A program made the position numbers and the translations under genes. 64,000 nt of DNA from Schmidtea polychroa (taxonomy: Eukaryota), in the NCBI GenBank assembly GCA_044892525.1, contig CM097885.1, positions 107,136,001-107,200,000 on the forward strand, given 5' to 3'. Below the pieces are notes generated by a model. It ran no database searches. It worked only from the letters and a program-made list of their open reading frames with translations, and was not told the DNA's origin. Within the stretch, counting starts at the first letter, position 1. Each line of letters opens with the position of its first letter. This document shows, piece by piece, positions 34,037 through 52,950 of the stretch.

Positions 34037-35183
34037 TCAAAAGGGCCCCGACATAAAGGCTTCCGGCAAAAGGCCTCTGATATAAGGGCCCTGGCAAAAA
34101 CGACCCCTGTCAAAAGGGCCCTCACCAATTGGATCGCGTAGATAGAAAATTGAATTGGATCTTAGTGAATGGTGATAATACACAACTTTATAACTACGTA
34201 CTTTCATGCATTTCATTCTATTATGAAATGCCAGTAAGCAAACCTGACTCTGTTTCTCCTTCTGTAAACAAGTATTTACACACATTAGGAGCCGTTACAT
34301 TTTGCTTGCAAACAAATTTTCCTGGGTTTATTTAATTTGTTTATTTAATAATAATTTTAAAAAAGGGGTCATCCATTTAAGATTGGCGGGTGGAGTCCAA
34401 AGCTGGACAATAATTACAGGGGGATTCTTGCCAAATTTGACGCCCAAAGATAAAGTTTTTCCAAAAGTTACAATTCGTCTTTTTTTTTTGATATTGTGAA
34501 TAAAAGTTTTTAAATCCTTTATAGTTCTTTATGTTCTCACTGAAACAGCAATTAAAGACCCAGTATGCGAAAACCTTTTAATTAACTGCCACTGAATGGT
34601 TGACACATTATGGAGTCCCTGGTATCTCCTTGGCACAAAGATCACAGATTGACAGTGGCTCATTAATTCCAGTTTCTCATATTTATTCTCAAAATCGTTG
34701 TGTGATGCGTCAAGCGATTTTGGATTAAAGTTGGGGAAAAAAATCCAATATTTTTCTGGACGTTCCGGGGGAGGGGGGTCTGGACGTGAGTGGACTGGAG
34801 AATCTAATATTTCTATACGTTTGTTATTACACATGAATATAGTACCATGGAATGGTTTTGGCGAGGGAGTAGTTGGACCAGGAGAGGCCGGAATAGTAAA
34901 TTTGGCACGAATTCGATCAATCTTGTCAGTGAAGAATTCACGGAATGCTTTAGCAAAAGTGGATTTATCATGCTGGTCAGGAAGAGAATATGTGGTGGTG
35001 CGGTGTAAAATAGAATTTAGGGTTTACCAGAGCGAGTGGGGATAAGTGTATAGTTGTTGATTGGGTGTGAAACTTCCAGAAACAGTGTGTTTTTGTTTAC
35101 TCAGTGTTTACGCGGGTCTATTGGCGGGGCCCTTTTGTCCGGTGGCCTTTATGTCGAGGCCGTTATGTCCCGGGTCCTTTTGA
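34037..35183. mobile_element. Non-autonomous TIR element with GC-rich subterminal tandem arrays (MULE/foldback-like)
   Basis: Left array of TCAAAAGGGCCC / ACATAAAGGC units at 34037-34125 and the inverse array ending GGGTCCTTTTGA at 35183. No clear TSD found. Confidence 0.45.
34860..35045 (-). pseudogene. Fragment of a CR1/L2-type LINE ORF2 (region upstream of RT)
   Basis: Minus frame reads HSLW*TLNSILHR...SLPDQHDKSTFAKAFREFFTDKIDRIRAKF, matching the LW..NSLL..R...F..FF..KI..IR pattern of these LINEs. Confidence 0.65.
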
Positions 35184-35508
35184 CGGGTCACCAGAAAAAG
35201 AATTGCTATTTCATTCAGGCATGCCGACCATAAAATTATTTTGTGGGTCAGATGAAATATTCTTTATTTTTAATATTTCATCTGACCCACAAAATAATTT
35301 TATGGTCGGCATGCCTGAATGAAATAGCAATTCTTTTTCTGGTGACCAGTCAAAAGGACCCGGGACATAACGGCCTCGACATAAAGGCCACCGGACAAAA
35401 GGGCCCCGCCAATAGACCCGCGTAAACACTGAGTAAACAAAAACACACTGTTTCTGGAAGTTTCACACCCCATCAACAACTATACACTTATCCCCACTCG
35501 CTCTGGTA
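35024..35508. repeat. Near-perfect inverted repeat (238/237-bp arms, 10-bp spacer)
   Basis: 35024-35261 is the reverse complement of 35272-35508 with about two differences; the mirror ORFs 35104..35322 (+) and 35211..35429 (-) reflect it. Confidence 0.95.
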
Positions 35509-35717
35509 ATAAACTGATATTTAAAAAAAAATTTTATAATAAAATTTTTTACTCTTCATATTAATTGATGAGTACTTTTAATTTTTTAATCTATTGTGTG
35601 TAATGAGGATAGAAGAATTTTTTGGTAAATAATTCTTTAAAAGAAAGAAAAATAATTGTCATAAATATGCAATTTATTTCTATTTATTAAATAACAAAAC
35701 AAACGAATTTCATAATA

Positions 35718-36212
35718 CAGGCATCCCTGGTATAACACGGTATTCGTTATTATTATTACTTATTACACGGTATATGATTTGAGATTAATATAACACGGTT
35801 TTGATATAGCATGAATTTGAAAAATCGAATATGCATTGGAAATTTCAATCTTTGTTTCAATTGCGTTCAATAAAGGCTGCCCTAAAGTTTATGCTGGAAA
35901 TACCACGAATTATTGAAGAGGGAGAATATTCAACAGAACAAATTTTAACGCCGATGAGAAAAAGGTACCAGGTTATAAGCCTTGTAAAGATCGTCCTACC
36001 CTTGACATGTGTAGTAACCTATAGGGAAATTTTGTAGTTAAACCAATAATAAATTGTTCCTTGAATCCCGGAGCATTGTAAAATGTCAATAAGTATCATC
36101 TACCACTTCCCCGGCAAGCAAATAAAAAGGACTGGATGACGTAAAATTTATTTGAAGACTGGTTTAAAAATTGTTTTATTTTAGAAGTAGAAAAACATTT
36201 GAAGAAAATCAC
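35718..36212 (+). mobile_element. Truncated Tigger-like transposon fragment
   Basis: TA|CAGGCATCCC left end with repeated TAACACGGT subterminal motifs, and DDE-domain remnants (IIEEGEYSTEQI; NPxAL; FEDWFKNCFI.EVEKHL). Truncated on the right. Confidence 0.7.
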
Positions 36213-37332
36213 TGTATAACGCTAGGAAGTTTCTTTTCCGCTGTATTTACGGTGTCTACCAATTCATACTTTGCATCCACTTTTGGATATACTTGGATAT
36301 ACTACTTTAACTAAATTCTTTAATAACCCTTTTGTCTCATCGACTTCTAATTGTGACCTTCTAGGCTCTTTTTTATCTCATACAAAGTTCTAAGCTTTTT
36401 AGTAATAATTTCACTATTCATTTCGCTTTTTGATACCTGGCATTCATTTTGTACTTCTGTTATTTTACTTTTATCTTTGTCATTCGTTTCTAAGTCATTA
36501 TTGTCTATTACATTTTAACCTTTAGCTCTATTTTCATTTACATAATCTCCTTTTATATCACCATTTGACCTGACGGACTCATATACTGTATTTGATATCT
36601 GATTTTTAATTACTACTACATAATTCACTAAATATCGTGTATCTGAACGTAAGTATCCGTCTAAATCTAAATCTTGTGGTATAAACCAACAATCGTATAA
36701 ATATTCATCGTCATCTAACTCTTAACCTTTGAATATCAATAGAATAATCCCATCTTTTCACATTCTTTCAGCGGCTCCAATGTTCATCTATATACTCCGT
36801 TTTCCCATCATTTTCATAACCCAAAGCTATTACAAGTGGTTTTAATTTCAACTTGGTCTCTCTAATCTCTTTTCCTAACTTTTGCAATAAGCTAATTAAT
36901 TTCCATTTATACTTCGATCCTTTGATATAATATAATGGCCCTACTACATTTAAAATTTCTAATTTACTATTTTCGTCGAATTCCATTTCCTAAACTAATT
37001 TCAACTATTTGTTAATTTTATTTTATCCCACTCATTTAAAGTTTCTCTCAGTCCCCTTACAATTTTCTGTGGATCACTTTTAACCTTTGTATAATCGCTC
37101 GTCATTTTTGCTATCTTCACTTTATTTTTATTTCCCGATATAAAACTATAATCGATTAAAAGTCATCATTATGTAAACATCGATTTTTAAACTTCAACTT
37201 TAGTAACTGTTTCCCATCGGTCTCTTCTAATCTCTCCTTTAAGTCTTACACAATTTTCTACTTCACACCGAATATAAGCTAGATCTTTATTATTTTCATC
37301 TACAACATCAATCAACATAAAATCTAACCATG
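36213..37332 (-). mobile_element. Decayed retroelement accessory-ORF region (target of the Polinton insertion; continues at 52338-52573)
   Basis: ORF 52330..52554 (...YREITW) continues in frame after the TSD as LDFMLIDVVDENNKDLAYIRCEV. The region is homologous to the ORF at 17..391. Confidence 0.6.
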
Positions 37333-37665
37333 AGTAGTGAGGAATCTATGCACCCCAGCACCCCAACCCTCAAAAAAAACAGCGCTATTGACCCATATTT
37401 TCCACATTTATATGCTTTTTTACCCCATATTCTTCACTTTTTTTAACTTTTAAACTTTGTCCCCTATTGCCATTAACCCTTAATTTCTTCCCTTAAAAGT
37501 AAAAAAGTTCGGAATAGATGTATTTATAGATTAGTAATTCCGAGAAAAGGTAACGGGGTGCATAGATTCCTCACTACTTGGTCTTAAGGATTTAATGTTA
37601 TAAGGATTTAATGTTATAAGAATATCAGATTACCTAATTCATAATGATCTAGGTCGCCTGATCAC
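37333..37665 (+). repeat. Left TIR of the Polinton (333 bp)
   Basis: Reverse complement of 51999-52331; no mismatch found by eye. Confidence 0.95.
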
Positions 37666-38250
37666 CTTAAGGTTTTGAAAGTTTTAAAAATAAAAAATTT
37701 TATGAAAATAGTAAAACTGCTCTGAGGGGACAGTGGTATTTTTTTTTTTTTTTTTTTTTCACTGTCCCCTCAACAGTTTTTTTTGATCCGGATCATTTTT
37801 TTTTTTTTATTTATCAACCTCTTTCGTTTATCAAATCTCTTCCAATATACAAGCTGGCCAGACTCATACATCAGAATCAATCCGATAATAGCAGCACGCC
37901 TTATTATTCGCTTCTCGCTCACGAAGTCGATTTCAACGGCGTTTTAAGCGTGCTGCTCGAAAGTACAAATGAATTCGAAAGCGAATCCGAAAGAGGTCCG
38001 AAAACAACCAAGAAATAAATGTGCACATTATAGAATCGATCCGGGGGTGTTCGAAAGACAGGTGGCGATAATTACCGGTTCGCCACCATCACCCGTTTCA
38101 ATATTTTTTTTTTCATATTTATGTTTAAAAAATAATTAATTAATAAAAAAATAAAATAAAATAAAATAAATAAAATAAAATATACAAGTACTTTATAAAT
38201 ATAAGATACCCACACTATTATTTTCAAATTTTTAATATTATTTTATGTTG

Positions 38251-38333
38251 AAAAAAAACTAACCACAGTTAGGATTTGAACCGCTATCTATTTGAACCAC
38301 TGTGCCGGTCTAGCCCACTGCGCCATCAAGGTT
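38251..38333 (-). ncRNA. tRNA-like Pol III cassette 1
   Basis: A box TGGCGCAGTGG (38315-38325), B box GGTTCAAATCC (38272-38282), T8 terminator (38251-38258). No canonical cloverleaf. Confidence 0.55.
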
Positions 38334-38491
38334 TGAATTTTTGTCATTTTTTAGACTATAAATAATCGATTCAAGTTAAAACGTTTTTGATCTTAAATTT
38401 CCAAGAGTTGCCGTTGACCAATCACCTTTAAAACTTGTACAAGTACTAAATCGAGTATGCTGATCAATATTTTGTTTAAAAAAAAAATTTG

Positions 38492-38572
38492 AAAAAAAAT
38501 GACCGAAATGGGATTTGAACCCATTGGTATTGGCAATGCAGTCGAGTGCTATTACCACTAAGCTATACTCAA
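38492..38572 (-). ncRNA. tRNA-like Pol III cassette 2 (tRNA-Cys-derived appearance)
   Basis: GTATAGCTTAGTGGTAATAGCACTCGACTGCA resembles the 5' half of tRNA-Cys(GCA). Perfect T arm ATGGG-TTCAAAT-CCCAT and T8 terminator, but the anticodon and acceptor stems do not pair canonically. Confidence 0.6.
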
Positions 38573-38725
38573 TATGAAATAAGTTGTTAATGTGTGACTA
38601 TTTATTGATGAAATTAATAATTAATTATTCATTTTCTCGACAACTACCACTCAGATCCATCTGAAAATTTAAATATATACTAAAATCAGTACGCTGAATC
38701 AGATTCCGTTGAAAAAAAAATATCG

Positions 38726-38807
38726 AAAAAAATTGACCAAAATCGAAAATTGAACCCGGTACTCCCGGTGATAAAATTGAAGCCTATTCCCACTCCGCTA
38801 TAATGGC
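38726..38807 (-). ncRNA. tRNA-like Pol III cassette 3
   Basis: A box TAGCGGAGTGG (38790-38800), B-box-like GGGTTCAATT (about 38747-38757), T7 terminator. Confidence 0.5.
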
Positions 38808-38863
38808 TTACATAATATATTTAATTAATCCTATTGTGTGTGTGTAAATTTTAATATATAAAA

Positions 38864-40156
38864 ATGAATAATATAAATCTTAAAATTCAAGAAAAAAATA
38901 AATTAAATCTTGATTATAATAAAGAATTTACTCATGAAATCAAGAAAAACGATGTACTTAAAATCTCCCCAACTTCAGGATCTATTGCAAACTTAAATCG
39001 TAGGGGTGATATAGTTTTTCAATCTCTTCAAACATCAAACCCTATAGATATTTGTAATGCCAAATTATATTATAAAATCGAATTAGAAATTGAAGCAAAC
39101 AAAGATATAACCCTAGAAAATAATTTCTTTCCAAATTTATTCTCCAATATGAGATTAAAACTAGGATCATCAGAAATTGAAACTGTTTTACATCCGGGAG
39201 TATATTCTACAATGTTAAATTTTATTTTGACTGGTTGTGATTATAAAAACGAATATGGTGAATTAACAGGTTGGATTCCTGATGTTAATAAAGGGGATTT
39301 AGATAAAGATGGTTTAGATGTAAACCATGGTTACTATAAAAGAGCTGAACTTTATAAATCTAAAAAATTTGAAGGTTATTTTGAATTAAAACACTTGTTT
39401 GGATTCCTTCAAAACTATAATCGTATACTTCATAATGTTTTTATAGAATTCATCTGTAATAGAGTAGAAGGTGATAAAAGATTGTTCTATGGAGCTGTAG
39501 ATACAAAAGCTAAATTAAAATTATCAACACTTGAATTACATATACCTGAATGGACATTAAACCCACATTCTGAGATTAAACTCCTTGAAAGATTAAATTC
39601 CAACAAGTCTATAAATGTAAATTATTTAAATAGAATCTGTAGTGAATTTAGTATGACAGAGGGTTCAACATATTCTATAAAGGTAGCAAATTTAGCATAC
39701 CGACCAAGATATATCTTGATTGGATTCAAAGAAACAGATTCATCTTTCCAAAAAAATAACAATCTATTTATTCAAAAGATTGGAGATGATAATTTAAAAA
39801 CAATACAAATTCAATTAAATAGTTCTTATTATCCAATAAATAGAATGGAATTTAATATTGAAAATAATGAAAACATATTCCCATATCTAAATTATATTGA
39901 AACATGTTATGATTTCAAAGTTGAACCGCAATTAAGTTTAGAAGATTTCAAAAATTTATATTCTATATTTTGTATAAATGTATCAGACCAAGATGATCGA
40001 TTAGCCATAAATAATGTTGATGTTACACTTCATGTAACAAAGGATTCTAATTTTAAAGCTAAAGTATATACATTAATATTAGAAGAAAAGAAAATAGAAA
40101 TGAAATTATATGGTGGAAAGATTTCAATTATTGAAAATGTTAGGGGAGATTCTTGA
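38864..40156 (+). CDS. Putative major capsid protein (double jelly-roll, hexon-like)
   Basis: 430 aa, beta-rich, typical Polinton MCP size and position. Patterns such as FFPNLFSNMRLKLG, LKHLFGF, RPRYILIGF and YSIFCINVS resemble Polinton MCPs. Fold inferred. Confidence 0.8.
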   Translation: MNNINLKIQEKNKLNLDYNKEFTHEIKKNDVLKISPTSGSIANLNRRGDIVFQSLQTSNPIDICNAKLYYKIELEIEANKDITLENNFFPNLFSNMRLKLGSSEIETVLHPGVYSTMLNFILTGCDYKNEYGELTGWIPDVNKGDLDKDGLDVNHGYYKRAELYKSKKFEGYFELKHLFGFLQNYNRILHNVFIEFICNRVEGDKRLFYGAVDTKAKLKLSTLELHIPEWTLNPHSEIKLLERLNSNKSINVNYLNRICSEFSMTEGSTYSIKVANLAYRPRYILIGFKETDSSFQKNNNLFIQKIGDDNLKTIQIQLNSSYYPINRMEFNIENNENIFPYLNYIETCYDFKVEPQLSLEDFKNLYSIFCINVSDQDDRLAINNVDVTLHVTKDSNFKAKVYTLILEEKKIEMKLYGGKISIIENVRGDS

Positions 40157-40185
40157 TATAATCCCTGATATTTTAACATTTTAAA

Positions 40186-41592
40186 ATGTCTTTAAATAAA
40201 TATTGGAGATGTGAAACTTGTAATTGTCAAGTTACAAGACATCATAAAGCAAGCCATCTTAAAACTAAAAAACATACAGTAGGTGACCTAATTCCACGAG
40301 CTGGAGGCGATTTGCAATCTTCAAAAACAACATCTTCAATATTAAAACCTTTTACTACAGAAAAATATCCAGGTGAAAGACATTTATTTAAACACAACTA
40401 TACTGGACCAGGAACACGTCTAGATATTAGATTAGATGAAAATAATAATCCCAAACAAGGAGAAGAACCAATAAATAGAATTGATCAAGCAGCTTTAAAA
40501 CATGACATTGCATACAATTCAACAAATCTTAGAGATAGACATGTTGCAGATGTGAATTTAATACATGATTTAAATAGTATCCAAAATCCATCAACCCAAG
40601 AAAAGATTCAAAGAGCTCTAGTTAAATTAGCAATGAAAGGTAAGATTTTCATAGGCTTAGGACACAGTCCGATCACCATGGGTGCAAGACTTCATAGGAA
40701 AGCAAAAGATGTTGCTTATAAAAAGATTATCGAACAAGCAGACGCTGAAAGATCCCTCGAGAATATATCCAAGACTAGTTTACAAACCCCAACAGAATCA
40801 GAAATAAAATATGCAAAGGAATTACACCATGAATTTAGAAAAAATAAAAAATATTTAAAAGTTCAAGTACATGAAAAAGATCAAACATGGTCTGCAGATT
40901 TAGTCTTTATGCCCAAATCATCAGACCCTGAAAAATATAAAATAATTTTAACTGTAATAGATTTATATACAAGATTTGCTTTTGCAAGATGTTTAGAAAA
41001 TAAAACAGGATATTCTATTACAGAAGCATTTGAAAATATATTTGAAGAAAATCAAAGAATCCCAAAATATTTATGGTGTGATAAAGGAACAGAATTTTAT
41101 AACAAAGTTTTTACAAAGTTTTTAAATGAAAATGATATTAAATTATATTCAACAGAAAACGAAGGAAAAGCAGTCGTAGTTGAAAGATTAAATAGAACAT
41201 TAAAAAATAAAATGTGGAAATATTTTACTGCTATTGGAAAACAAAAATGGAACAATGAATTGTTACAAAAGATTGTAAATGAATATAATAATGATGTACA
41301 TAGTTCTATAAAATCAACACCTTTAAATGCTTCCATGAAGCCTGAAACCATTAAAGTGGTAAATATTGAAAATGATATTGAAAAACCAAAGTTTAAAATT
41401 GGTGACCGAGTAAGAATATTTAAATATAAAAATAAATTTGAAAAAGGATTCACAGCAAAATGGACAAATGAAATTTTTATTATAAATAAAATAAATTATA
41501 CAACTCCAATAACATATAGCATCTTTGATTTAAATAATGAAAAAATATTAGGTAGATTTTATAATAATGAACTACAGAAAACAGATTTTTAA
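40186..41592 (+). CDS. int: Retroviral-type DDE integrase with N-terminal zinc finger and parvovirus-type phospholipase A2 domain
   Basis: DDE residues in WSADLVFM / LWCDKGTEF / VVERLNRTLK, C-terminal KFKIGDRVRI...KWTNEIF region. PLA2 motifs YTGPG and DQAALKHDIAY. C-x2-C...H-x5-H finger at the start. Confidence 0.93.
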   Translation: MSLNKYWRCETCNCQVTRHHKASHLKTKKHTVGDLIPRAGGDLQSSKTTSSILKPFTTEKYPGERHLFKHNYTGPGTRLDIRLDENNNPKQGEEPINRIDQAALKHDIAYNSTNLRDRHVADVNLIHDLNSIQNPSTQEKIQRALVKLAMKGKIFIGLGHSPITMGARLHRKAKDVAYKKIIEQADAERSLENISKTSLQTPTESEIKYAKELHHEFRKNKKYLKVQVHEKDQTWSADLVFMPKSSDPEKYKIILTVIDLYTRFAFARCLENKTGYSITEAFENIFEENQRIPKYLWCDKGTEFYNKVFTKFLNENDIKLYSTENEGKAVVVERLNRTLKNKMWKYFTAIGKQKWNNELLQKIVNEYNNDVHSSIKSTPLNASMKPETIKVVNIENDIEKPKFKIGDRVRIFKYKNKFEKGFTAKWTNEIFIINKINYTTPITYSIFDLNNEKILGRFYNNELQKTDF

Positions 41593-41603
41593 GTCGACAA
41601 GCC

Positions 41604-42395
41604 CTAAAACAAACTTTTCCATATTTCAGCTTCTTCTCTATCCAAATAAATATAATTATATTTTTCTTTCCAATGATTATCAACAAACATATCAAACATA
41701 TTCTTATCAGGTTCAACATTTGAAAATAAATCATTATAAATCATATTCTTATCACGGCGATCTAATTTAAAAAATATAAAACAATTGGAATTATTTCTTA
41801 TTGAATTTTTATCTAAAGCATAATATGTTTGAGATATATAAATAACATTACAATTATTATGTCGACCTCGTGTAAAGTAACTCTTTTGAATCTCTTGATT
41901 TTTCATATTAACAACATCATCAAATATAACTAGATTCTTTTTATCTTTAGGAAGTAAATCACAATGTAAAACATCTTCAGGTTTATTAGAGAATAAAACT
42001 TGAATTGCCTCCTGCCCTTCTTCACAAATATAATCATTTTTATTACTAATATCTGATTCTAAAATCTTTTCCTTATACCAATCAACCATATCACAAGGTT
42101 GAAAAACTTCTTCAGGACACCTATGTTGATTTTTAAAAATATCAATTATTGCTTTTTTAGTTAATTTATTTTCAAATCCACATTTCAAAAGTTGTAATTC
42201 TGGTTGATTTATGGTTGTAGAATAAAAGATTAAATTATTATAATCTAAAAAATCATCTTCAAGTAACATTCTCAAAACAAGTACATTCTTTCCACATCCA
42301 GAAGAACCAACAATTAATAATCTAAAATTATCAGGAAATACTTTATTATTGAATTTACTCTTATGTCTATTTAAAATTGGTTTCCAAGTATCCAT
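41604..42395 (-). CDS. A32/FtsK-like genome-packaging ATPase
   Basis: Walker A GSSGCGKN, Walker B LVIFDD, and motif FTRGRHNNCNVIYISQ, typical of Polinton and poxvirus A32-like ATPases. Confidence 0.92.
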   Translation of the reverse strand: MDTWKPILNRHKSKFNNKVFPDNFRLLIVGSSGCGKNVLVLRMLLEDDFLDYNNLIFYSTTINQPELQLLKCGFENKLTKKAIIDIFKNQHRCPEEVFQPCDMVDWYKEKILESDISNKNDYICEEGQEAIQVLFSNKPEDVLHCDLLPKDKKNLVIFDDVVNMKNQEIQKSYFTRGRHNNCNVIYISQTYYALDKNSIRNNSNCFIFFKLDRRDKNMIYNDLFSNVEPDKNMFDMFVDNHWKEKYNYIYLDREEAEIWKSLF

Positions 42396-42411
42396 TTTTA
42401 TTTATTATAAA

Positions 42412-43020
42412 ATGACAACTGAAGAATCTTTGCAAGAATTAATAAATTCAAATAAAAATAAATCAGTAGTAATTGATGGTAAAAAATATTTTATTGGAAA
42501 ACATGTAAAAGAACAAGTTAGAGCGAAGCTCCACGAAGCTAAAGAAGGTGGCATTCTTCCATTAGCTGCTTTAATACCTGCAATCATTGCAGGTTTATCA
42601 GGTGCTGCTGGAATAGCTGGAGGAATTGCAACTACAGTTCAAAAAGCTAAAGAATCTCAAAAGACAGACCTAGAAAAAGAAAAACTACAAACTGAAATCG
42701 ATTCAATGAAGAAGGTAGGGCAAGCTAAAGGGGGAGTGTCCGTTGGAAAGGGTCTCTATCTTAATCCATATCAAGGGACTCCGTCTCAGGGGAGTCGGCA
42801 AAAGTCTCAGGGCAAAGGTCTCTATCTTGATCCTTATAAAGGTAGAAGTTTAAATGATTTTTTAAAAAATCAAATTTCTACATCTGAATCTTTATCTTCA
42901 AAAGATAAAGAAGATTTAAAAAAAATATGTAAATCTTTAAAGAATGGATGTCTTTGTAAAACTAAAAATGGCAAAGGTTTATACTTGAAGCCCTTTCCAA
43001 CGGATCCTTTACCAAAATGA
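42412..43020 (+). CDS. Putative virion core or membrane-active protein (Polinton PZ-like)
   Basis: Likely start is the ATG at 42412 (in frame with the track ORF). It contains GG|ILPLAALIPAIIAGLSGAAGIAGG and three GKGLYLxP repeats. Confidence 0.65.
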   Translation: MTTEESLQELINSNKNKSVVIDGKKYFIGKHVKEQVRAKLHEAKEGGILPLAALIPAIIAGLSGAAGIAGGIATTVQKAKESQKTDLEKEKLQTEIDSMKKVGQAKGGVSVGKGLYLNPYQGTPSQGSRQKSQGKGLYLDPYKGRSLNDFLKNQISTSESLSSKDKEDLKKICKSLKNGCLCKTKNGKGLYLKPFPTDPLPK

Positions 43021-43042
43021 TACCATTTTTAATACCATAAAA

Positions 43043-43912
43043 ATGGTATATGAAGAAAGATTAGCACTTTTAAAAAAATTACAATCAGAACAAGATAAAT
43101 ATAATAAAAAAGATACAAGTCAACATGCTGAATCTATAATATTAAATGAGGTAATAACACAACAACAGGGGCCAACAATTAAAGCTATAAAAGGATTAAA
43201 TGAGCAAGCAAAATTTAAAGAGTTAGAAGATGGAGGAAGTCCCCATGAACAAAAAATAAAAAAACTAGAGTGGAAGGAAGAATCCAGTGAAAACCATCCT
43301 GAAAGAAATCAAAGAAAACGCAGAAGAATTTCTAATGCGGAAGAAGAAGAAGAAATGTTTTTAAAAACAAAACCTCTTAAAGTTGATCCTAAAATTAGAG
43401 ATGATTTACCTCCTTCAATTAGACCCACATTTAATACTAATACTGAAGGATATCAAATAATAACAATTAATAAACAAAACTTTACTTTATATTCAAATTC
43501 AGAAAATAAATCACGTATTCATTCACAAAATGTTTATAATAATGAATATTTAGACTTTGAATTTACAGATGATTTTTATAAATTACTTTGTGGATATTCT
43601 TCAGATGATCTTGAAGAAATTAAAAAATATTTAAATTTAATAAGATTAATAAGAGCTGGTTCTAAAGCAAAATATATTCAAGATTTAAAGAATTATTTAG
43701 ATAAAAATGAAAAGGGTTATGTTGTTACAGAGGGAGAGGGATTAATTAGTGAAGGAAATTCCATCAATCTTTTTATTGAATTAAGAAAACTATTAGCTGC
43801 AAGGAAAGCAGGACATAATAATTTAGATTCTGATATTTTAAAGATTTCTAAAGATTTGTTAAAACAAGGAATAATTTCAAAAGATAAATTTAATAAGTAT
43901 ACGAAGTTATAA
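43043..43912 (+). CDS. Polinton hypothetical protein (possible core or DNA-binding protein)
   Basis: Intact 289-aa ORF co-oriented within the structural gene block; basic NLS-like RKRRR and a C-terminal ELRKLLAARKAGHNN motif. Confidence 0.7.
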   Translation: MVYEERLALLKKLQSEQDKYNKKDTSQHAESIILNEVITQQQGPTIKAIKGLNEQAKFKELEDGGSPHEQKIKKLEWKEESSENHPERNQRKRRRISNAEEEEEMFLKTKPLKVDPKIRDDLPPSIRPTFNTNTEGYQIITINKQNFTLYSNSENKSRIHSQNVYNNEYLDFEFTDDFYKLLCGYSSDDLEEIKKYLNLIRLIRAGSKAKYIQDLKNYLDKNEKGYVVTEGEGLISEGNSINLFIELRKLLAARKAGHNNLDSDILKISKDLLKQGIISKDKFNKYTKL

Positions 43913-43964
43913 ATACGAAGTTATAAAATACGTAGTTTTAAAATACGAAGTTTTAAAATACAAA

Positions 43965-44417
43965 ATGACTCCTTCAATATTAGATTTTTTAAAAACATTT
44001 GGAATAAATGCAAAAACAAATTTTGATTTAAAAGATTATGCAAATTATTTAAATTTAAAAATTAAAATATTAATGAATGATGAATTATCAAGTCTGGAGA
44101 GTCCCCTGAATATAATAATCAATTATCAAAATTCAAATGAAAAAGGATCTCATTGGGTTTGTATATATAAGAAATCTATCTACTTTGATTCTTTTGGGAT
44201 TAAACCTACTAAAGAAGTTGAAGATTATCTCTTGAGGGGTTCTCCGATTGATTCCCCAAATGGTTATACTTTTAACTCTTTACAAGTTCAACCTTTGAAT
44301 ACTAAAATATGTGGTATTTTAAGTTTATATGTTTTGTATAGATTGAATATGGGGCATACGCAGGATTTTGAATCTATAATTCAAGAAATTTATAATGATC
44401 TAGAATCTCTACTATAA
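43965..44417 (+). CDS. Adenain-like cysteine (maturation) protease
   Basis: GSHWVC (His), YFDSFG (Asp), QP...CG (Gln, Cys): the adenoviral protease catalytic pattern. Confidence 0.92.
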   Translation: MTPSILDFLKTFGINAKTNFDLKDYANYLNLKIKILMNDELSSLESPLNIIINYQNSNEKGSHWVCIYKKSIYFDSFGIKPTKEVEDYLLRGSPIDSPNGYTFNSLQVQPLNTKICGILSLYVLYRLNMGHTQDFESIIQEIYNDLESLL

Positions 44418-44465
44418 GGATTTTTACTATAAGGATTTTTACTATATGAATTTACTACTAAAGAA

Positions 44466-45230
44466 ATGGAGCTTCACAACCCTCCGGAAGATAATTTAAA
44501 AAAAATGGTAAACATAATGTCAGATAAATATTCAAGAACTTTATCTATAAATTCAAAAGAATCAGAGTTTACTATAAACTTTCAAGATTCAATTAAATTA
44601 GATCAAAATTTAAATTATGAATTGGGGCTATTATGGTTTTGTGCTTATAATACTATTTTTAATATAACTAAAGATAATAATAAATTTACTATTCAAACTC
44701 GTGATGGGCATAAACCAGAAATTATAACAATAGAACCTGGGGCATATGAGATAAAAGATTTAAATGATATACTTTCTAAAAAAACAAATGAAGGAATTAA
44801 AATTAAAATGGATATACCAACTTCAAAATGTGTAATGACTTTGAAGAATATAAAAATTAGTTTTTTAGATAATTGTTTCTTTCACACAGTTTTAGGATTT
44901 AAACCTATGGATATAACAATAAAAGAAGATAAAATAATAACATCAGAACATATTATAAAAATAATAAATACAAACACAATAAATATTCATTGCGATTGTA
45001 TAACAGGTTCTTATAATAATGGTAAACAAACAAATGTTTTATATTCCTTTCCCTCAAACACAGTTCCTATGGGATATAAAATAGTTGAAAGAATGAATCC
45101 TCCAAATTATTTACCTTTATGTAGAAAATATATAATGGATATTAATTTTAAAATTCTTAATCAAGAAGGAGAATTGATTGATTTTAATGGAGAAGAGATT
45201 TCAATGTATTTACATTTGAAACAGGTTTAA
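44466..45230 (+). CDS. Putative minor capsid protein (penton-like single jelly-roll)
   Basis: 254 aa; IEPGAYEIKDLN and INIHCDCITGSYNNGKQTNVLYSF...YLPL...DINFKILNQEGELIDFNGE patterns resemble Polinton minor capsid proteins. Confidence 0.8.
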   Translation: MELHNPPEDNLKKMVNIMSDKYSRTLSINSKESEFTINFQDSIKLDQNLNYELGLLWFCAYNTIFNITKDNNKFTIQTRDGHKPEIITIEPGAYEIKDLNDILSKKTNEGIKIKMDIPTSKCVMTLKNIKISFLDNCFFHTVLGFKPMDITIKEDKIITSEHIIKIINTNTINIHCDCITGSYNNGKQTNVLYSFPSNTVPMGYKIVERMNPPNYLPLCRKYIMDINFKILNQEGELIDFNGEEISMYLHLKQV

Positions 45231-45256
45231 CGAAGTCCATTTTAAATTATTAATAA

Positions 45257-46267
45257 ATGAGTTCTTATATTCCATGTAATAGAGGTGGTGGAACAATAAA
45301 AACAGGGTTTAATACAGAAGAAATATTAACTTTAACAGAAAATAAATATATTAATGAAAGAGGTGATTCAATGAAGGGTGATTTAATTTTAAATGGACAC
45401 AAGATAAAAGAATTATCTTTTCCAACTGATGAAGCTGATGCAGTTAATAAGAAATATGTAGATGGTGTTAAAAAATATACTGATTTAACAACAACAAGAA
45501 TTGAAAGTTCATTAACAACAAAAATTGATTCAATGGAATCAAAGCTTAATAATATCGAACAACGATTTAATGATAAATTTGACAAGTTACAAAGTCTGTT
45601 AACTGAACAAGTTGTAAAGTTAAATACTGCTATATTAAATTCTAAAGATAAACAAATTATGAATACTAAATTTAATGCAATATATAATATAATAAATGAG
45701 ATGATTACATCATTTAATAAAAGAATTTCAAATTTAGAGTCTCGTGGAACACACACTAACACCACACATAGTATTAGAAAAAGAGCTGCTGAATTAGAAC
45801 AGAATAAAACATTATTACCCCATACATATAAACATTTTATAGAACCAAGTTTAATAACAACAAACAGTAAAGAATGGGGTGTTTTTATGGTTGTAAAAAT
45901 TATTGATCCTTATTTCTTTTTGTTTGATGATGATAATGAAAGAATGAAATGGTTTGTGAAATGTGATTATAATAGTAAGCTTGAAAAGGGTGATGTTATA
46001 ATGACTAGTTATGATTTACCACACGGAGATTGGTATGTTAATACTCATTCACATGGACTACATAAAGTTAAAAGTAAGAATATTCATTTTTCTAGTTCAC
46101 TTGTACAATATATAGATTTAATATTTTATGAAAAAAAGGTTGATGTTGATGAAGTTCGTAAAGCATTGAGAGAATTGTATAAAGATATCCTCTCAACAAG
46201 AGTTTCTTTTGATATCCGAGTATTGGTGCCAGATGGTGCTCAGAAGAATAAAGTCTTATTTTTTTAA
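45257..46267 (+). CDS. Putative fibre or receptor-binding protein
   Basis: GDSMKGDLILNGHKIKELSFPTDEADAVNKKYVD resembles a phage and virus fibre repeat, followed by a long heptad coiled coil and a beta-rich C-terminal domain. Confidence 0.55.
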   Translation: MSSYIPCNRGGGTIKTGFNTEEILTLTENKYINERGDSMKGDLILNGHKIKELSFPTDEADAVNKKYVDGVKKYTDLTTTRIESSLTTKIDSMESKLNNIEQRFNDKFDKLQSLLTEQVVKLNTAILNSKDKQIMNTKFNAIYNIINEMITSFNKRISNLESRGTHTNTTHSIRKRAAELEQNKTLLPHTYKHFIEPSLITTNSKEWGVFMVVKIIDPYFFLFDDDNERMKWFVKCDYNSKLEKGDVIMTSYDLPHGDWYVNTHSHGLHKVKSKNIHFSSSLVQYIDLIFYEKKVDVDEVRKALRELYKDILSTRVSFDIRVLVPDGAQKNKVLFF

Positions 46268-46275
46268 TTATTAAA

Positions 46276-46872
46276 ATGGAAGAAGTAAGAGAAGAAAAAT
46301 TTTACCCCGAATTGAGATCATCAGGATATTATTCTTCCAAGGCCTCGGCTCCCACAGAACTTGAAATTATGAGAGTAAAAGAATTTAAATCAGAAACCTT
46401 ACATTTACAAGATTTATTAAAGCATTATAAAAAAATTAAAAATAGATGGAATAAAGGGAATACAGTTTTAAAAGTTATAGGTTATTCTTTAGGATTTGCA
46501 TCTGCAATATTAACAGTTATTTTACCCATAACTTTACCAGTTGTTACTCTTGCACCTGTAATACTTGGAAGTATTTCTGTGGCTGATGGTTTCTTAACTG
46601 AAATAGTTTCATTATCTTATACTTCTAAAAAGAAAAGTTTATATAGAGAAGTTTGTTTATCAATAGAATTAGGAATCTCTAAATTATTTTTATTTCAATT
46701 AAAAGCTTTGGAAGATGGAATCCTGACAGACGAAGAAATAATGAAATCAAATCAAATAATACAAGATATAAAGAATGAGGTTATAAGATTAAAAAGGGAG
46801 GGCATGGTGGCTAATGTTATAAGTAATAAAAAAACATCTCGAGAAAAATGGTTAAAGAATTCTTACTTATAA
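46276..46872 (+). CDS. Small hydrophobic-hairpin membrane protein of the Polinton
   Basis: Central hydrophobic stretch VLKVIGYSLGFASAILTVILPITLPVVTLAPVILGSISVA, then KALEDGILTDEEI motif; intact ORF. Confidence 0.65.
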   Translation: MEEVREEKFYPELRSSGYYSSKASAPTELEIMRVKEFKSETLHLQDLLKHYKKIKNRWNKGNTVLKVIGYSLGFASAILTVILPITLPVVTLAPVILGSISVADGFLTEIVSLSYTSKKKSLYREVCLSIELGISKLFLFQLKALEDGILTDEEIMKSNQIIQDIKNEVIRLKREGMVANVISNKKTSREKWLKNSYL

Positions 46873-46966
46873 AATGGGTGTATTTTTAAAAAAGTAGATC
46901 AGGTTGCTATAGTTGCTTAAATTAATTGTCGACATTTTATTATTAAAAAATTAAATATCGTTGGTT

Positions 46967-47521
46967 TCAGTTATGGTTGAAAGCCAACCTATGAATCATT
47001 AATTTATGATCTTTAAATTCTTTATCACTTAGACCTTTTATATATTCAGGATCAGTATTAAAATATTTAAGTTCTAAACATATAGGATTAAAAACTTGAG
47101 AATATAAAGGTTTCTCGATTTCTCTCTCGGGATAAATAATTTCAACATTATAAATATCAAGATCAGTAATCTTTGTATCATATAACTTATTCAACTTTTC
47201 TAGATTTTTTATTATAGGGATTAAATTATTTCCAATAGGTAGAGTTGTCTTTAAATCACTTAGTATGAATCTCTTATCATCATAATTTGATAATGATACT
47301 TTTTGAGATTCTATCAAGTGAATATCATGGTTTTCACTTTTAAGTTGATGTATTTCATCAATTTTATCTTTATGATTTGGATTCAATGTATCTATATAAT
47401 CTTGATGAGAAAGATTCTTTGCAACCACTCTCTGTATTCCTTTACATCTGTTATCCTTTAAATTAGTAATATTTTTTATAATTTCAAAAATGTTATTTTC
47501 TTGATTTTTAGTTTCCATCAT
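46967..47521 (-). CDS. Stand-alone paralogue of the pPolB C-terminal region (184 aa)
   Basis: Aligns to the last ~170 aa of PolB (KGIQ...NYDDKRFILSDLKTTLPIGN...LKYFNTDPEYI). It has its own ATG and upstream motif. Confidence 0.85.
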   Translation of the reverse strand: MMETKNQENNIFEIIKNITNLKDNRCKGIQRVVAKNLSHQDYIDTLNPNHKDKIDEIHQLKSENHDIHLIESQKVSLSNYDDKRFILSDLKTTLPIGNNLIPIIKNLEKLNKLYDTKITDLDIYNVEIIYPEREIEKPLYSQVFNPICLELKYFNTDPEYIKGLSDKEFKDHKLMIHRLAFNHN

Positions 47522-47545
47522 TTTATAGTGTTAAAATTCTAATTC

Positions 47546-50500
47546 TTAGACCAGTCGTAATTGATTTATAATTATTTCTGCAGTAATGCTTTTTAACATT
47601 AATTTATGTGATTTAAAGTCTTCTGGTGTTAGTCCTTGGATATATTCAGGATCAGTATTAAAATATTTAAGTTCTATAGGTTTTATATTTTGAACTTGAT
47701 TATATAAAGGTTTAGGAATTAATATTTCAGGATATTGGATTTCTACTTTAGCAAGTTGAAGGTCTGTAATCTCTAGGTTATAAATTTCATTTATTTTATC
47801 AAGATTTTTTATTATAGGGATTAAATCATTTCCAATAGGTAATGTTGTCTTCAAGTCAGAAAGTATAAATCTTTTATCATCATAATTTGTTATAGCAATC
47901 TTGTTACACTCTTCAAGATATATATTATGTTTCTCTGATTTAAGATGATGGGTTTTAGCAATTTTATTTTTATAATTTATATTTAATGAATCTTTATACT
48001 CTTGATGTGTGAAGATTTTTGACACTGATTTTTGAATTCCTTTACTTTTATTTTCTTTATAGCTTTTCGGGTTTTCAGGGAATGAAGGATATTCAAATGT
48101 GTGATCTATTTCAACAGATCCTTCTCCCTCCCCTATTATAAATTTTATTGTATGCTCTTTCATAATTGGGTTGTCTTTCATTTCAAGAGAATATTGTTTA
48201 GGTCTAATAAACACTCCTCCACTTATTGGAGTATTTGGTTTTTCATCTTTAAAAGTAAATAATTCTCCAGAGTTGTTTATTAATTTATTTAAGGTTTCGT
48301 TTTCACTTATTTCCTTTTTTAAATCTTTACTATGACCTTTTAAAAACATACTATCAGTGTCCATAGCATGCATGGATATTCGATCTCCAAAATGTGGTAC
48401 TAGAACATCATAGTAGGCTTCATACATTTGAAGCTTTGAAAGTTCTAAAATTGAAAACCCTATAAAGATTGGTTTATTATAAGTTTTTACAGAGTTTTTA
48501 ATCTCTATGGCTATAAGGTTACTAGAGAATATCTCGGCATTTTTAAATGTGGGCTTTCCAATTATCCGGTTGTACCTATTAAGGTCTTTGGATGTATTGG
48601 TCAAAAGCTCTACACGTGTGTACTTGTCTATATTCTCCATGGTCTTTCCAAAGACCGCATTGTTCAGGAGTTTGTAAATCATATCAAGAAATGCATTTCC
48701 AGCTCTCTTTGCTGCATTTCTTTTCAAAATATTTCCCTCTATGAATTTTTTCATAAAAGGGGCTTGTCGAAATTTAATAATGGAATGTACTTTTTTTAAA
48801 ACCATTCCATGGGAGAGATAAAACTGAAGGAGTCTATAATGACAAAGGTAATCAGTTTTATCGGTCTGATCGCATAAAAGTTTTATACAGGGCGATCTAT
48901 CCTGAGCCATCTGCCAGTCTGAAAGTTCTTCAGTCGAGATCTTTCTTCTTACTGGAGCAAATGGAAAGAATCTTGTCCTGGATTTTATTTCATTGGGATA
49001 TTCAAGATCGCATTCTATGACATATCCAAATTGAGAATCTTTTGGTGTTTTTAGAATTTCTTGTATTAATTCCTCAGTGGGCTCTTCCCAGGTGAACTTG
49101 CCAATTGGAAGGTATTGAGTCATTACTCCCGCATATAAAGCTGTTGCATCTATATACATTATTTCAGAAGGATTAGAAAGACCTTCCATTATTTCCTTAC
49201 GATCTTCTGGGTTTGTTATTTCTACATATAGAGCATCAGGATCTTTGAAAAATTTAGGATAAAGAGTTGTAAAATTATTAGCATTTATTTCTCTATTCCC
49301 TTGTACTGAAGAAATACCTCCTCTAATATTATGTTTATATACATTAAACATATCAAGCTCAACTAATAATTCAATAGTTTTATTTCTTACTGCTACATCT
49401 TCATCAGTCCATATGGTATATAATAATATATCCCAAGCTAGAGAGGGAGCGGTTATATAATTATAAGGTTTTAATTCAAAAGCTTTTGAAAATGTCTCGA
49501 AGCAATCAGCTAAGATATAAACATCCAAGGAAAGATACATGTCAGTATATTCTCCAAGGTTTCTACAGTTGAATAGATTCCACATTTTAACTGCACGGGA
49601 ATATTCCTGATCAGAAATCCCTGATTGTGTTAAAACAGAAAAGAAATCTTCTTGGGGTGGGAGTAATTCATTATATTTTTCAAAGGAGTCTATATAATCA
49701 TATGGATAGATTCCTTTTGCTAGACAGGTATTATATTCCTCTAATGGAATATTGTTTTTTAATAACACATGTTCTTTTGTATATTTAAAATCCTCAGGGT
49801 TCATAGTTTTAGCAATCCCATCCAAAGACATCCCTAAGAAATTTAACGAGTCCAAAAACTTAAAGCATCCATATTGAATGCTTTTATATTTTTCTTTTGT
49901 AAGTCCAATAACCTTGAAAGAGTTTTTAGCATTTGCGGCCAGATGCTTAATGAATAGGTGAATATCATAGCCAAAAAGATTGTGAAATATAAATGGTATG
50001 TGTGTTGGTTTTTTACAATTGAGATTACATTTTTTATGGGCTGCTCCTCTGTAATTATTTTCTCTTTTAAAATGATCATGGTCTGCAACCTTTGGCTCCT
50101 CATCCTCAAACTCTTGTTTACACATCCAGCAGTGTGTTGCATTTTTATATTCTTCCTCTTGTTCTTCTGAAAAATTCATAGGAAAGTTGGATTTTAATAT
50201 TATATATAATTCATGTTCTAGATTATTTAAAGTTTTAACAAAATGATCTAGAGTCTCTTTGTCAGAAGTTCCTCTAAATGAATATTCTCTAGATTCTACA
50301 AGTTCTGGATAATTACTTTTAAAAAACATTTTATAAGCAGAGGGTAATTGTTTTGTTAGTTTTACAGTATTAGTTTTTGTTCGTCTTAGTTTTACATTTA
50401 TAGCTTCAAAATCACAATAAACCACTCCCAATGCTTCTAATAGATTGGAATAGTTTTTAAACCTCATATTAGCATTTTTCTTGTGTGGCATTTTTATTAA

Positions 50501-51925
50501 AGCAGGTTGATTCTTACAACAGAGTCTCTCATGTTTAATAGCAGCAAGTTTTGAACTTGAATGATATAAACATCTTTTACAACATATGCCTCCACGAATG
50601 AGTGTGTTTCCTTTCATAAAACTTTGAAAATTCTTTATTAAGATATAATGAAGTTTTTTATCTAACATAGTGCCTCCGGACGCAGTGCTTTCTGCTTCTG
50701 GTTCTAATGAAATGCCTTCTTCTGCTTCTCTCCTCGGGTGAACGCTTTGAACCTCTTCACCATATTCTTCTCCATCAAAGTCTTCATCTGGTTTACCTTC
50801 TTCTAATATTAAAAGATCTACTTCTCTCTTTTCATCTGAGATTTCCATGTTAGAAATGTAAATAGGAATAATGTGTTTATAATTTTTATTTTTTCTAGTT
50901 TTTGTAATTTTGGTTGGAATGAATTGATAAATATTAATTTTAAGATTATTTAATTTTTCAAATGCTGGAACATCTTCAATTTTCATTGGGTGGGAAAAAT
51001 CTTTTGGATAAATTAATTCAGATTCATATTCTTCATATTTTTGAACTCTCTGTGGGTTAGTTGCTTGAGGATGTAAGTGTGCAAGTATTGACCATTGAAA
51101 ACATTTATTATCTTTATTCTGTACATTTATAACATGGTTGGAGGTGAATGGTGTGTGAATAAAAGATTTAGGATTTGGTGGTGCGCCTCTCCAGTATTCA
51201 ATCTCTATATTTTGAAAAGAGTGGAATCTTAAATTAGATTCTCCTAGTTCTTGTTCCACCTGTTCTTGTTTTTCTTCCAATTCTTTAGCTATATCATTAA
51301 CAAGTTTATTTCCTGCTTTTGTAGAAAATAAATATTTATATGAGGTTTCAATTTTTACATCTAGAGGCATTGCGATTGAATCATCTCCTCTCCAGTATTT
51401 TGCATTTCCTGTAAATTTAACTTTTATAACATTAAATCTTGATCTACCAAATTTTTTTATAGCATCATCCATTGATGATATTATTTTTTTTTTATTTTCT
51501 CTTATATATTGCATGATTGATCTGGGTCCTCGTTTTACTTCTGCAATTACATCGGTGTGATTGAAGTCATCCCAATTAAACTCTAGTTTTTCAGCTTTTT
51601 CAGTCATTGAGTTTGAATCAGAATCTTTTGCTTCAAGACCACAATCTTCTATGTGTCTTAAGTAAAAAGATTTTATCCTCATCGTTTTTCCACATGCTGA
51701 ACATTCGAATATTTCTCTGTTTTTAGGAACTCCAATACAATTTTTAAAATGCTTCTTATAACCTGAAAATAAATATCTATCCTTACATTTAGTACAGATT
51801 TTGGAATTAGTGTCATCTAGTGTGTTAGCTTTTATTAAATGGTCTTTTGATTTTTTATGAGATGTTAAAGCAGTTTTATTTTTAAAATTTTTTTCACAAA
51901 TTTCACAATTGAAAATAGCTTCCAT
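47546..51925 (-). CDS. polB: Protein-primed family B DNA polymerase
   Basis: Exo I YCDFE, Exo II HNLFGYD, Exo III YLSLDV, Pol A YIDATALY, Pol B KLLNNAVFGKT, Pol C DTDS. N-terminal zinc fingers, CFQWSILAH...HYILIK protease-like segment, and EndoVII-like CWMC...DHDH...HKKCN insert. Confidence 0.97.
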   Translation of the reverse strand: MEAIFNCEICEKNFKNKTALTSHKKSKDHLIKANTLDDTNSKICTKCKDRYLFSGYKKHFKNCIGVPKNREIFECSACGKTMRIKSFYLRHIEDCGLEAKDSDSNSMTEKAEKLEFNWDDFNHTDVIAEVKRGPRSIMQYIRENKKKIISSMDDAIKKFGRSRFNVIKVKFTGNAKYWRGDDSIAMPLDVKIETSYKYLFSTKAGNKLVNDIAKELEEKQEQVEQELGESNLRFHSFQNIEIEYWRGAPPNPKSFIHTPFTSNHVINVQNKDNKCFQWSILAHLHPQATNPQRVQKYEEYESELIYPKDFSHPMKIEDVPAFEKLNNLKINIYQFIPTKITKTRKNKNYKHIIPIYISNMEISDEKREVDLLILEEGKPDEDFDGEEYGEEVQSVHPRREAEEGISLEPEAESTASGGTMLDKKLHYILIKNFQSFMKGNTLIRGGICCKRCLYHSSSKLAAIKHERLCCKNQPALIKMPHKKNANMRFKNYSNLLEALGVVYCDFEAINVKLRRTKTNTVKLTKQLPSAYKMFFKSNYPELVESREYSFRGTSDKETLDHFVKTLNNLEHELYIILKSNFPMNFSEEQEEEYKNATHCWMCKQEFEDEEPKVADHDHFKRENNYRGAAHKKCNLNCKKPTHIPFIFHNLFGYDIHLFIKHLAANAKNSFKVIGLTKEKYKSIQYGCFKFLDSLNFLGMSLDGIAKTMNPEDFKYTKEHVLLKNNIPLEEYNTCLAKGIYPYDYIDSFEKYNELLPPQEDFFSVLTQSGISDQEYSRAVKMWNLFNCRNLGEYTDMYLSLDVYILADCFETFSKAFELKPYNYITAPSLAWDILLYTIWTDEDVAVRNKTIELLVELDMFNVYKHNIRGGISSVQGNREINANNFTTLYPKFFKDPDALYVEITNPEDRKEIMEGLSNPSEIMYIDATALYAGVMTQYLPIGKFTWEEPTEELIQEILKTPKDSQFGYVIECDLEYPNEIKSRTRFFPFAPVRRKISTEELSDWQMAQDRSPCIKLLCDQTDKTDYLCHYRLLQFYLSHGMVLKKVHSIIKFRQAPFMKKFIEGNILKRNAAKRAGNAFLDMIYKLLNNAVFGKTMENIDKYTRVELLTNTSKDLNRYNRIIGKPTFKNAEIFSSNLIAIEIKNSVKTYNKPIFIGFSILELSKLQMYEAYYDVLVPHFGDRISMHAMDTDSMFLKGHSKDLKKEISENETLNKLINNSGELFTFKDEKPNTPISGGVFIRPKQYSLEMKDNPIMKEHTIKFIIGEGEGSVEIDHTFEYPSFPENPKSYKENKSKGIQKSVSKIFTHQEYKDSLNINYKNKIAKTHHLKSEKHNIYLEECNKIAITNYDDKRFILSDLKTTLPIGNDLIPIIKNLDKINEIYNLEITDLQLAKVEIQYPEILIPKPLYNQVQNIKPIELKYFNTDPEYIQGLTPEDFKSHKLMLKSITAEIIINQLRLV

Positions 51926-51998
51926 TTTTAAAAGAATCTTTTGGTTGGATACGATGTTTTGGTTTTGATATTAATTTTTATTTTTTTTAAATCTAAAA

Positions 51999-52331
51999 GT
52001 GATCAGGCGACCTAGATCATTATGAATTAGGTAATCTGATATTCTTATAACATTAAATCCTTATAACATTAAATCCTTAAGACCAAGTAGTGAGGAATCT
52101 ATGCACCCCGTTACCTTTTCTCGGAATTACTAATCTATAAATACATCTATTCCGAACTTTTTTACTTTTAAGGGAAGAAATTAAGGGTTAATGGCAATAG
52201 GGGACAAAGTTTAAAAGTTAAAAAAAGTGAAGAATATGGGGTAAAAAAGCATATAAATGTGGAAAATATGGGTCAATAGCGCTGTTTTTTTTGAGGGTTG
52301 GGGTGCTGGGGTGCATAGATTCCTCACTACT
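51999..52331 (-). repeat. Right TIR of the Polinton (333 bp)
   Basis: Ends ...CACTACT followed by TSD ACCATG. Confidence 0.95.
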
Positions 52332-52950
52332 ACCATGTAATTTCTCGATACGTTTTACCAAATATTTTCATCACATTTTCAAATTCGTTTCCATCTTTCA
52401 AATTTACATCATAATAATCGGCACACAGGTCAATTACAACTTTCAATTTTCGAATCCTCAGTGCCATTTGACTCAAGTCATTTAGCGATGAGATTACTTT
52501 AGATGTTTCTGTTGATAAATTTCTGTTAAATTTGTTGATCCTCAGCATAATCATTGTTATTTTTTCTCTTTCATACTATAGTAAATTATCGCTATATAGT
52601 TTATTTTTAAAAATCTGGATTTCCCAGATGGTAATATTTTATATTTTAGTATACACAATTCCTAATTGTGAATACTAAAATATTAACAAAAATAACTGTA
52701 CATTACATAACTTCCCCTTTTAAAACCGGAGGTTAACATGAATCAATAAAAAGTACGTAAAAAAAAATTACATTCAATAACCTTTTTTTTCGTATGTTTT
52801 ATATGTTTTTGTGTTTTTTTTTTCTGTTTCTTTGTATCTACAACTTCAATAAAATTAAAAATTTACATTTTGTTTTGTATTTACAAGAAAAATAAAAACT
52901 GTACAATTAACGCTGTTTGTGCGTGTGTTTGTTTGTGTATGTTTGTGTTT

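Follow-up and report, generated by a model that had tools for sequence, protein, structure and literature searches.

The Polinton and its row of promoter units

The window, the whole stretch of 64,000 nucleotides of Schmidtea polychroa DNA analysed here, contains an intact, adintovirus-like Polinton/Maverick element of about 15 kb (Table 1). The element encodes a capsid protein, a PLA2+integrase protein, an A32 ATPase and a protein-primed DNA polymerase B (pPolB). Long terminal inverted repeats (TIRs), AGT termini, a 6-bp target site duplication (TSD), pPolB, an integrase of the retroviral type, the A32 ATPase and a double-jelly-roll capsid were all found, which assigns the element to the Polinton/Maverick group. 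Four units with RNA polymerase III (Pol III) promoter boxes lie on the minus strand between the left TIR and the capsid gene. The preliminary description of this DNA had already placed such units inside a Polinton or adintovirus and between these two features, and the coordinates bear out both statements.

Table 1. Features of the Polinton and of its Pol III promoter units (window coordinates)
Feature	Position	Strand	Remarks
Polinton/Maverick (adintovirus-like), intact, ~15 kb	37334..52331		AGT termini; 6-bp TSD ACCATG at 37328-37333 and 52332-52337
Left TIR	37334..37693		partner 51971-52331; 361 nt, 97% complementary
Double-jelly-roll major capsid gene	38864..40156	+	transcription directed away from the array
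Segment common to host rDNA intergenic spacer	38373..38852	-	units 1 and 2 with their spacers; near-identity, empty-site copies, AAAATT junctions
Unit 1	38726..38807	-	A box 38800-38790, B box 38756-38747; three inner T4 runs; T7 at 38732
Unit 2, tRNA-Cys-like	38492..38572	-	A box 38565-38555, B box 38521-38511; T8 at 38499
Unit 3, resident	38251..38332	-	A box 38325-38315, B box 38282-38272; second B-like word at 38298; T8 at 38258
Unit 4 head	38019..38092	-	relaxed A box 38085-38075, B box 38042-38032; 44 nt from A to B; 240 bp behind unit 3
Single T4 between unit 4 head and hairpins	38001..38004	-	possible early Pol III stop, +89
Unit 4 hairpin 1	37890..37957	-	12-pair outer stem; z -3.2; one pair varies G-C, G-U, A-U
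Unit 4 hairpin 2, pre-miRNA-like	37828..37888	-	25 pairs, 9 of them G-U; 7-nt loop
Unit 4 hairpin 3, A-rich loop	37717..37776	-	z -8.6; one pair changed from G-C to A-U on both sides
T4, T4, T6 and T5 runs	37686..37716	-	predicted end of unit 4 read-through transcript, ~380-400 nt

Several further features were observed in the window. The integrase (40186-41592) carries an N-terminal parvovirus-type PLA2-like domain. A 184-aa open reading frame (ORF) duplicates the 3′ end of the pPolB gene over 300 nt at 75% identity and a distance of 600 bp (46967-47521 and 47546-47896). A gypsy-type LTR retrotransposon with identical repeats of 134 nt and an intact pol gene (1061 aa) occupies 52574-58054, 240 bp from the right end of the Polinton, and a near-perfect palindrome with 238-nt arms and a 10-nt gap is located at 35024-35509.

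The Polinton family is young and numerous, with at least 40 copies that are about 100% identical to the array region. The capsid gene has approximately 3200 candidates in the genome, and exact words of units 2, 3 and 4 occur 2966, 2728 and 2770-2940 times, respectively. The family is also modular: the TIRs vary between copies, and two pPolB alleles with 71% identity are found beside near-identical capsid modules (e.g. L176 and L177, C1:747900-765500). Some TIRs extend to 1019 bp across units 3 and 4, which are then present at both ends of the element. The same two units also occur beside the pPolB allele that is 71% identical to that of the window.

The layout of a type-2 Pol III promoter, with an A and a B box at tRNA spacing and a run of T downstream, is strict in units 1–3 and has a relaxed A box in unit 4. 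The strict A boxes of units 1–3 are the only three in the whole 64 kb. The complete A-B-T pattern, a standard consensus but one drawn up after the units had been seen, did not occur in any of 200 block-wise dinucleotide shuffles of the window or of 5000 shuffles of the 1170-bp region. The three minus-strand units with their boxes and T7-T8 runs, as given in the preliminary description, are thus well founded, and the element does carry Pol III promoter units. Their number, however, has to be corrected. A relaxed scan of the window revealed five A/B pairs at 40-50 nt, of which four belong to the array; the fifth, at 36969, is a poor match outside the element. The additional array member, with its A box at 38085, continues the phase of 235-240 bp shared by all four units. 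The four pairs are on one strand and spaced by 44-45 nt, which is the spacing of the host tRNA-Cys gene. It had further been claimed that the units are alike only at their promoter boxes, which is too strong: they also have in common the letters just after the A box and a GGTYA ahead of the T run, and units 1 and 2 are followed by stretches that share 75% of their letters over 80 bases. Neighbouring units are 195-306 bp apart in most of the sampled copies and about 487 bp apart where a 98-aa ORF separates units 2 and 3, in a survey that used fuzzy unit labels and mixed units 1 and 3. The number of units varies among copies through unequal recombination.

The tRNA fold is lost in all four units. 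The scan with tRNA and covariance models suggested in the preliminary description was performed with ARAGORN and Rfam. ARAGORN detected no tRNA anywhere in the window, and a cloverleaf with an anticodon stem was not found in any unit by ARAGORN, Rfam or folding, in agreement with the earlier view that no unit folds completely. Unit 2 alone touches the Rfam tRNA model, with 26.7 bits against a cut-off of 29.

Units 1 and 2 have counterparts in the host rDNA spacer

Unit 2 has a perfect T arm and lacks the anticodon stem. Its resemblance to tRNA-Cys, noted before, is supported by 48 identities to the host tRNA-Cys in a gapped alignment versus 39 to tRNA-Trp, while unit 3 is nearer to tRNA-Trp than to tRNA-Cys; as only these two host tRNAs were compared, the assignments are tentative. 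The host tRNA-Cys and tRNA-Trp genes themselves (993 and 829 pattern matches) form long tandem arrays with periods of 281 and 284 bp (L031, C1:269.25 Mb; L190, C4:55.02 Mb). Partial pairing of the acceptor and T arms can be seen in the sequences of units 1 and 2. The folding of unit 1 is no better than that of shuffles (z +0.07).

A word spanning the junction between unit 2 and the spacer that usually follows unit 1 occurs 1025 times in the genome, with periods of 13 kb, on small contigs and at chromosome ends. These 13-kb repeats are the 18S-5.8S-28S rDNA, and on three contigs their spacer matches the segment 38373-38852 of the window almost letter for letter. The host rDNA spacer has an exact counterpart of unit 1 and a repeated unit that is nearly identical to unit 2, the matching copy being located between the 28S and 18S genes of tandem rDNA, that is, in the intergenic spacer. 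The rDNA spacer holds an additional A/B unit 237 bp upstream of the units matching units 1 and 2.

Each sampled rDNA spacer contains tRNA-like A/B units about 240 bp apart and antisense to the rRNA (e.g. L187:2244-3300, C1:12251-13290). Besides unit 1, the row comprises an A/B unit that the Polinton lacks and unit 2 in one to three or more copies. The papers covered by a literature search contained no description of tRNA-like Pol III units in rDNA spacers.

Polinton copies without the segment have a clean empty site, and filled sites are flanked on both sides by AAAATT, which also occurs at the rDNA junction. Among 50 loci anchored on the capsid gene, 11 empty sites, 8 filled sites and 31 other junctions were counted. 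The piece present or absent among Polintons is exactly the one shared with the rDNA, and it is less diverged than the capsid gene or unit 3 (99%, 98% and 93% identity, respectively, among 37 loci). For these two reasons a transfer from the rDNA to the Polinton is the likely direction. Units 1 and 2 were most likely captured recently by the Polinton from the host rDNA spacer, and their spread may represent hitch-hiking after a single event. With 13 and 17 haplotypes, their variation is too little for a test of selection.

Selection on the promoter boxes of unit 3

The preliminary description had named conservation of the boxes among element copies as a check, and unit 3, present in other elements in one or two copies per end, provides it. 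In 69 distinct haplotypes, variants found in two or more haplotypes, here called shared, number 1 in 21 box sites and 38 in 56 other sites. The single shared box variant lies at the R position of the A-box consensus and is allowed by it. The ratio of shared to singleton variants is 1:7 in the boxes versus 38:10 elsewhere (Fisher p 0.0006). Among the copies, purifying selection thus acts on the boxes of unit 3. Folding of the unit is no better than that of shuffles (z +1.17), and no conserved fold was seen. Since the boxes stand still, the remainder drifts and the fold does not exceed that of shuffles, it is the promoter that has been kept and not the shape of an RNA.

In many copies a 98-aa ORF is present upstream of unit 3, on the same strand, with its stop codon inside the unit (L176:1778-2074 (-); also L039 and L059). 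It is absent from the subfamily of the window, and Pfam contains no family for it.

Unit 4 is a candidate hairpin RNA gene

Unit 4 extends from 38092 to about 37690, just outside the interval covered by the preliminary description. Its tRNA-sized head is followed by a T4 run at +89, a basal stem with two hairpins, an A run, the third hairpin and four T runs. The promoter strand is free of T4 from +90 to +376, a stretch of 288 bases after the T4, and then the four T runs follow. The head folds as one hairpin (z -0.75) and has no tRNA match in Rfam. The boxes of unit 4 are not visibly stiller than the rest of it (2 and 1 shared variants), and the A box fits the relaxed consensus only.

The body of unit 4 folds with z -5.4 on the promoter strand versus -1.2 on the opposite strand. 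Hairpin 2 reaches z -5.3 on the minus strand and +1.3 on the plus strand, so its stem folds on the minus strand only. In 73 haplotypes, pairing in the stems is kept by 10 of 12 shared variants versus 5 of 17 singletons (Fisher p 0.008), two stem pairs have changed on both sides, and in hairpin 2 all six shared variants keep the pairing. Under a null model of transitions only, the p values are 0.08 for 10 of 12 and 0.10 for the six of hairpin 2. The p of only 0.08 under this null and the non-independence of related copies make the strand asymmetry of folding a stronger argument than the variant counts.

Assembled contigs from three runs presumed to be RNA cover the unit 4 region and parts of the capsid gene, in a contig depth that shows neither strand nor level. 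The depth is highest at 37805-38107, where nearby A runs can prime libraries, and none of the contig pieces spans the T4 at 38004 with 31 letters to its left and right; this coverage is therefore not counted as evidence of expression. In vitro, T4 is an efficient stop signal for human Pol III, and viral tRNA-miRNA units yield both early-stop and read-through products (PMC3141230). In the first 73 bases flanking the host tRNA-Cys gene, the only T runs are T4. A search of the element's own sequence for targets of the hairpin arms gave results no better than shuffles, and words from the arms had 0 matches in literature text. Judged from its sequence, unit 4 is a candidate for a gene of the kind encoding adenoviral VA RNAs or the TMERs of MHV-68, with a predicted transcript.

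Distribution among copies and relatives

Among the 50 capsid-anchored loci, which were picked with outgroup proteins and are therefore biased to divergent copies, 43 contain units 3 and 4, 8 contain unit 1, 9 contain unit 2 and 6 contain none. The array is dispensable in some lineages. A search of viral contigs revealed no relative. Capsids with 73-75% identity exist (P0002, P0003). In 27 metagenome loci representing distant relatives, most of them too short to include the element end, neither a tRNA nor a convincing A/B pair was detected. Another Polinton family in the genome, with 2 copies, has no A/B pair and no homology to the units.

Two microRNA-like matches were observed in or near other Polintons. 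A distant Polinton from a metagenome, with a capsid 50% identical, has an intergenic hairpin matching Rfam mir-754 with 48.6 bits (E 2.6e-8; cut-off 84; L091:5436-5515 (-)); it is followed by T7, and A/B boxes are absent upstream. A match to Rfam mir-753 above the cut-off, with 81.2 bits, lies about 1.2 kb outside another Polinton (L193:3166-3227) and points to a planarian host.

Proposed mechanism and alternative explanations

We propose that the array is a four-unit row of Pol III promoters, in which units 1 and 2 were captured from rDNA, unit 3 is kept for its boxes and unit 4 is read into a hairpin RNA that feeds or jams the small-RNA machinery of the host; we give this reading an even chance of being correct. 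TFIIIC and TFIIIB would bind the A and B boxes. Units 1–3 would give short RNAs of about 75 nt that are unable to decode, and the main role of these units would be that of a Pol III hub, keeping the element end open and feeding unit 4. Pol III would have to pass the T4 at +89 often enough to yield the 380-400-nt RNA of unit 4, which is the weak step in the proposal. By analogy to the TMERs and VA RNA, the pre-miRNA-like stem could then be cut to a small RNA or act as a decoy that binds Dicer or Argonaute. Planarian Polintons are targets of piRNA silencing (PMC8532177), which would provide the motive for an anti-silencing RNA borne by the element.

The main rival explanation, which we regard as rather unlikely, is that the boxes work on the DNA only. 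As TFIIIC-bound tDNA barriers they would shield the first genes from silencing that spreads from the end, and the hairpins would belong to another transcript, for example the 3′ end of a Pol II mRNA of the 98-aa ORF. tRNA genes bound by TFIIIC do act as barriers (PMC10530723), some elements are bracketed by units 3 and 4 on both sides, and the boxes and terminator have been preserved while the RNA between them lacks a common fold. The termination of the ORF within unit 3 on the same strand and the T4 at +89 of unit 4 point in the same direction. A barrier, however, needs no T7-T8 terminator, yet the terminators are kept, and the head of unit 4 is in phase with the other units. Several copies (L061, L062, L073, L076) lack the AATAAA and the A run that follow the hairpins, and the subfamily of the window has lost the ORF and retains the hairpins; both observations count against this rival. 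It is improbable that each of units 1, 2 and 3 works as a small decoy RNA that the element has evolved to counter innate or RNAi defence. Their promoters and terminators are intact, the partial arm pairing of units 1 and 2 would fit such a role, and in MHV-68 a single viral tRNA-like module suffices for a phenotype (PMC4337559). Units 1 and 2 are, however, unchanged rDNA-spacer sequence of which the host already has many copies, units 1 and 3 fold like shuffles, and unit 3 drifts freely outside its boxes. For these reasons the idea of the preliminary description that its three units are VA-like effectors is not supported, whereas the presence of Pol III promoter units in the element is.

A still less probable explanation regards the whole array as neutral cargo, that is, tRNA pseudogenes carried by a successful element. 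Lineages without any unit, the shifts in unit number by unequal recombination and the young, little-varied capture of units 1 and 2 are in line with it. The stillness of unit 3, specific to its boxes, and the strand-specific, pair-keeping structure of unit 4 contradict neutrality of the whole; for units 1 and 2 alone neutrality may hold. We attach hardly any probability to the units being insertions of a host tRNA-derived SINE, an alternative raised in the preliminary description, even though unit 4 resembles SINE anatomy with its tRNA-derived head, body and A run. All 30 sampled unit 4 loci lie within Polinton sequence, 27 of 30 sampled unit 2 loci are in Polintons and the other 3 in rDNA (L116-L118), and the genome counts of units 3 and 4 are on the order of that of the capsid candidates. 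For the sampled loci, a tRNA-derived SINE is excluded by the lack of dispersed copies outside Polintons and rDNA.

Setting these alternatives beside the promoter row that ends in a hairpin RNA, we also put forward, with considerable reserve, a more far-reaching version of the latter. An animal Polinton would have built its own gene of the tRNA-miRNA type, unit 4, independently of herpesviruses and adenoviruses, and would tune it by stacked Pol III promoters, two of them lately acquired from the rDNA spacer.

Relation to known systems

Polintons are held to be ancestors or cousins of the adenoviruses. The VA RNAs of adenoviruses are about 160 nt long and have an internal A/B promoter near the 5′ end and a long double-stranded body. 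Unit 4 shares with them the position of the promoter, the double-stranded body and the related protein-primed dsDNA lineage, but its predicted transcript is longer (380-400 nt), and units 1–3 are short and unstructured. The Rfam model of the VA RNA family gave no match up to E 10 in 36000-41000.

MHV-68 has eight TMERs, tRNA-miRNA hybrids transcribed by Pol III, which lie in a cluster at its left end (PMC4337559). Like the array, they form a cluster of type-2 Pol III genes at the left end of a dsDNA element, with hairpins behind a head of tRNA size, a terminator in between that may act early, and no role in decoding (PMC4337559, PMC3141230). Pre-miRNA-like hairpins behind a Pol III head are also found in unit 4, as prediction and variant pattern indicate. 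In contrast to the TMERs, which have a tRNA-like 5′ domain, the head of unit 4 has no cloverleaf, three of the four units lack a hairpin trailer and two are host rDNA spacer; moreover, there is no sequence match, the host is an invertebrate and processing is a prediction. On our reading, the array would work like the TMERs without being a member of that group.

Pol III genes as cargo of Polinton-like elements are known from the polinton-like viruses of protists and from virophages, for which 558 canonical tRNA hits with a proposed function in aiding translation have been reported; the units described here differ in lacking an anticodon stem and in failing detection by ARAGORN (PMC12220804). 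With TFIIIC barriers the array shares a boundary position and the retention of A and B boxes where no working tRNA is left, but such barriers are known from chromosomes and not as cargo of transposon ends, and they leave the hairpins unexplained (PMC10530723). In the adintovirus paper, a term search located a single mention of tRNA genes, in the legend of a figure that deals with other viruses, and none of a VA-like RNA (PMC8502044). No such array was described in the titles and abstracts covered by our literature search on Polintons, with most subscription papers and the Repbase notes outside its scope, and this agrees with the preliminary description, which knew of no such Pol III cluster in Polintons. 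New here are the putative viral-type tRNA-like and hairpin genes for Pol III in an endogenous animal Polinton, whose transcription is predicted from sequence, and the likely capture of an rDNA-spacer segment.

Implications

If our proposal is true, genes of the VA/TMER type would be extended to endogenous animal Polintons, with a candidate hairpin-RNA gene at approximately 3000 copies. The capture also exposes a feature of the host, a tRNA-like Pol III row in each sampled rDNA spacer, antisense to the rRNA. Should the more far-reaching version be correct, lineage-specific microRNAs would be carried by the Polintons of this host group and might even have originated from them; the mir-754-like hairpin in a distant relative may be compared in this regard. 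The array bears on the question of how Polintons persist in the face of the strong RNAi and piRNA defences of their hosts.
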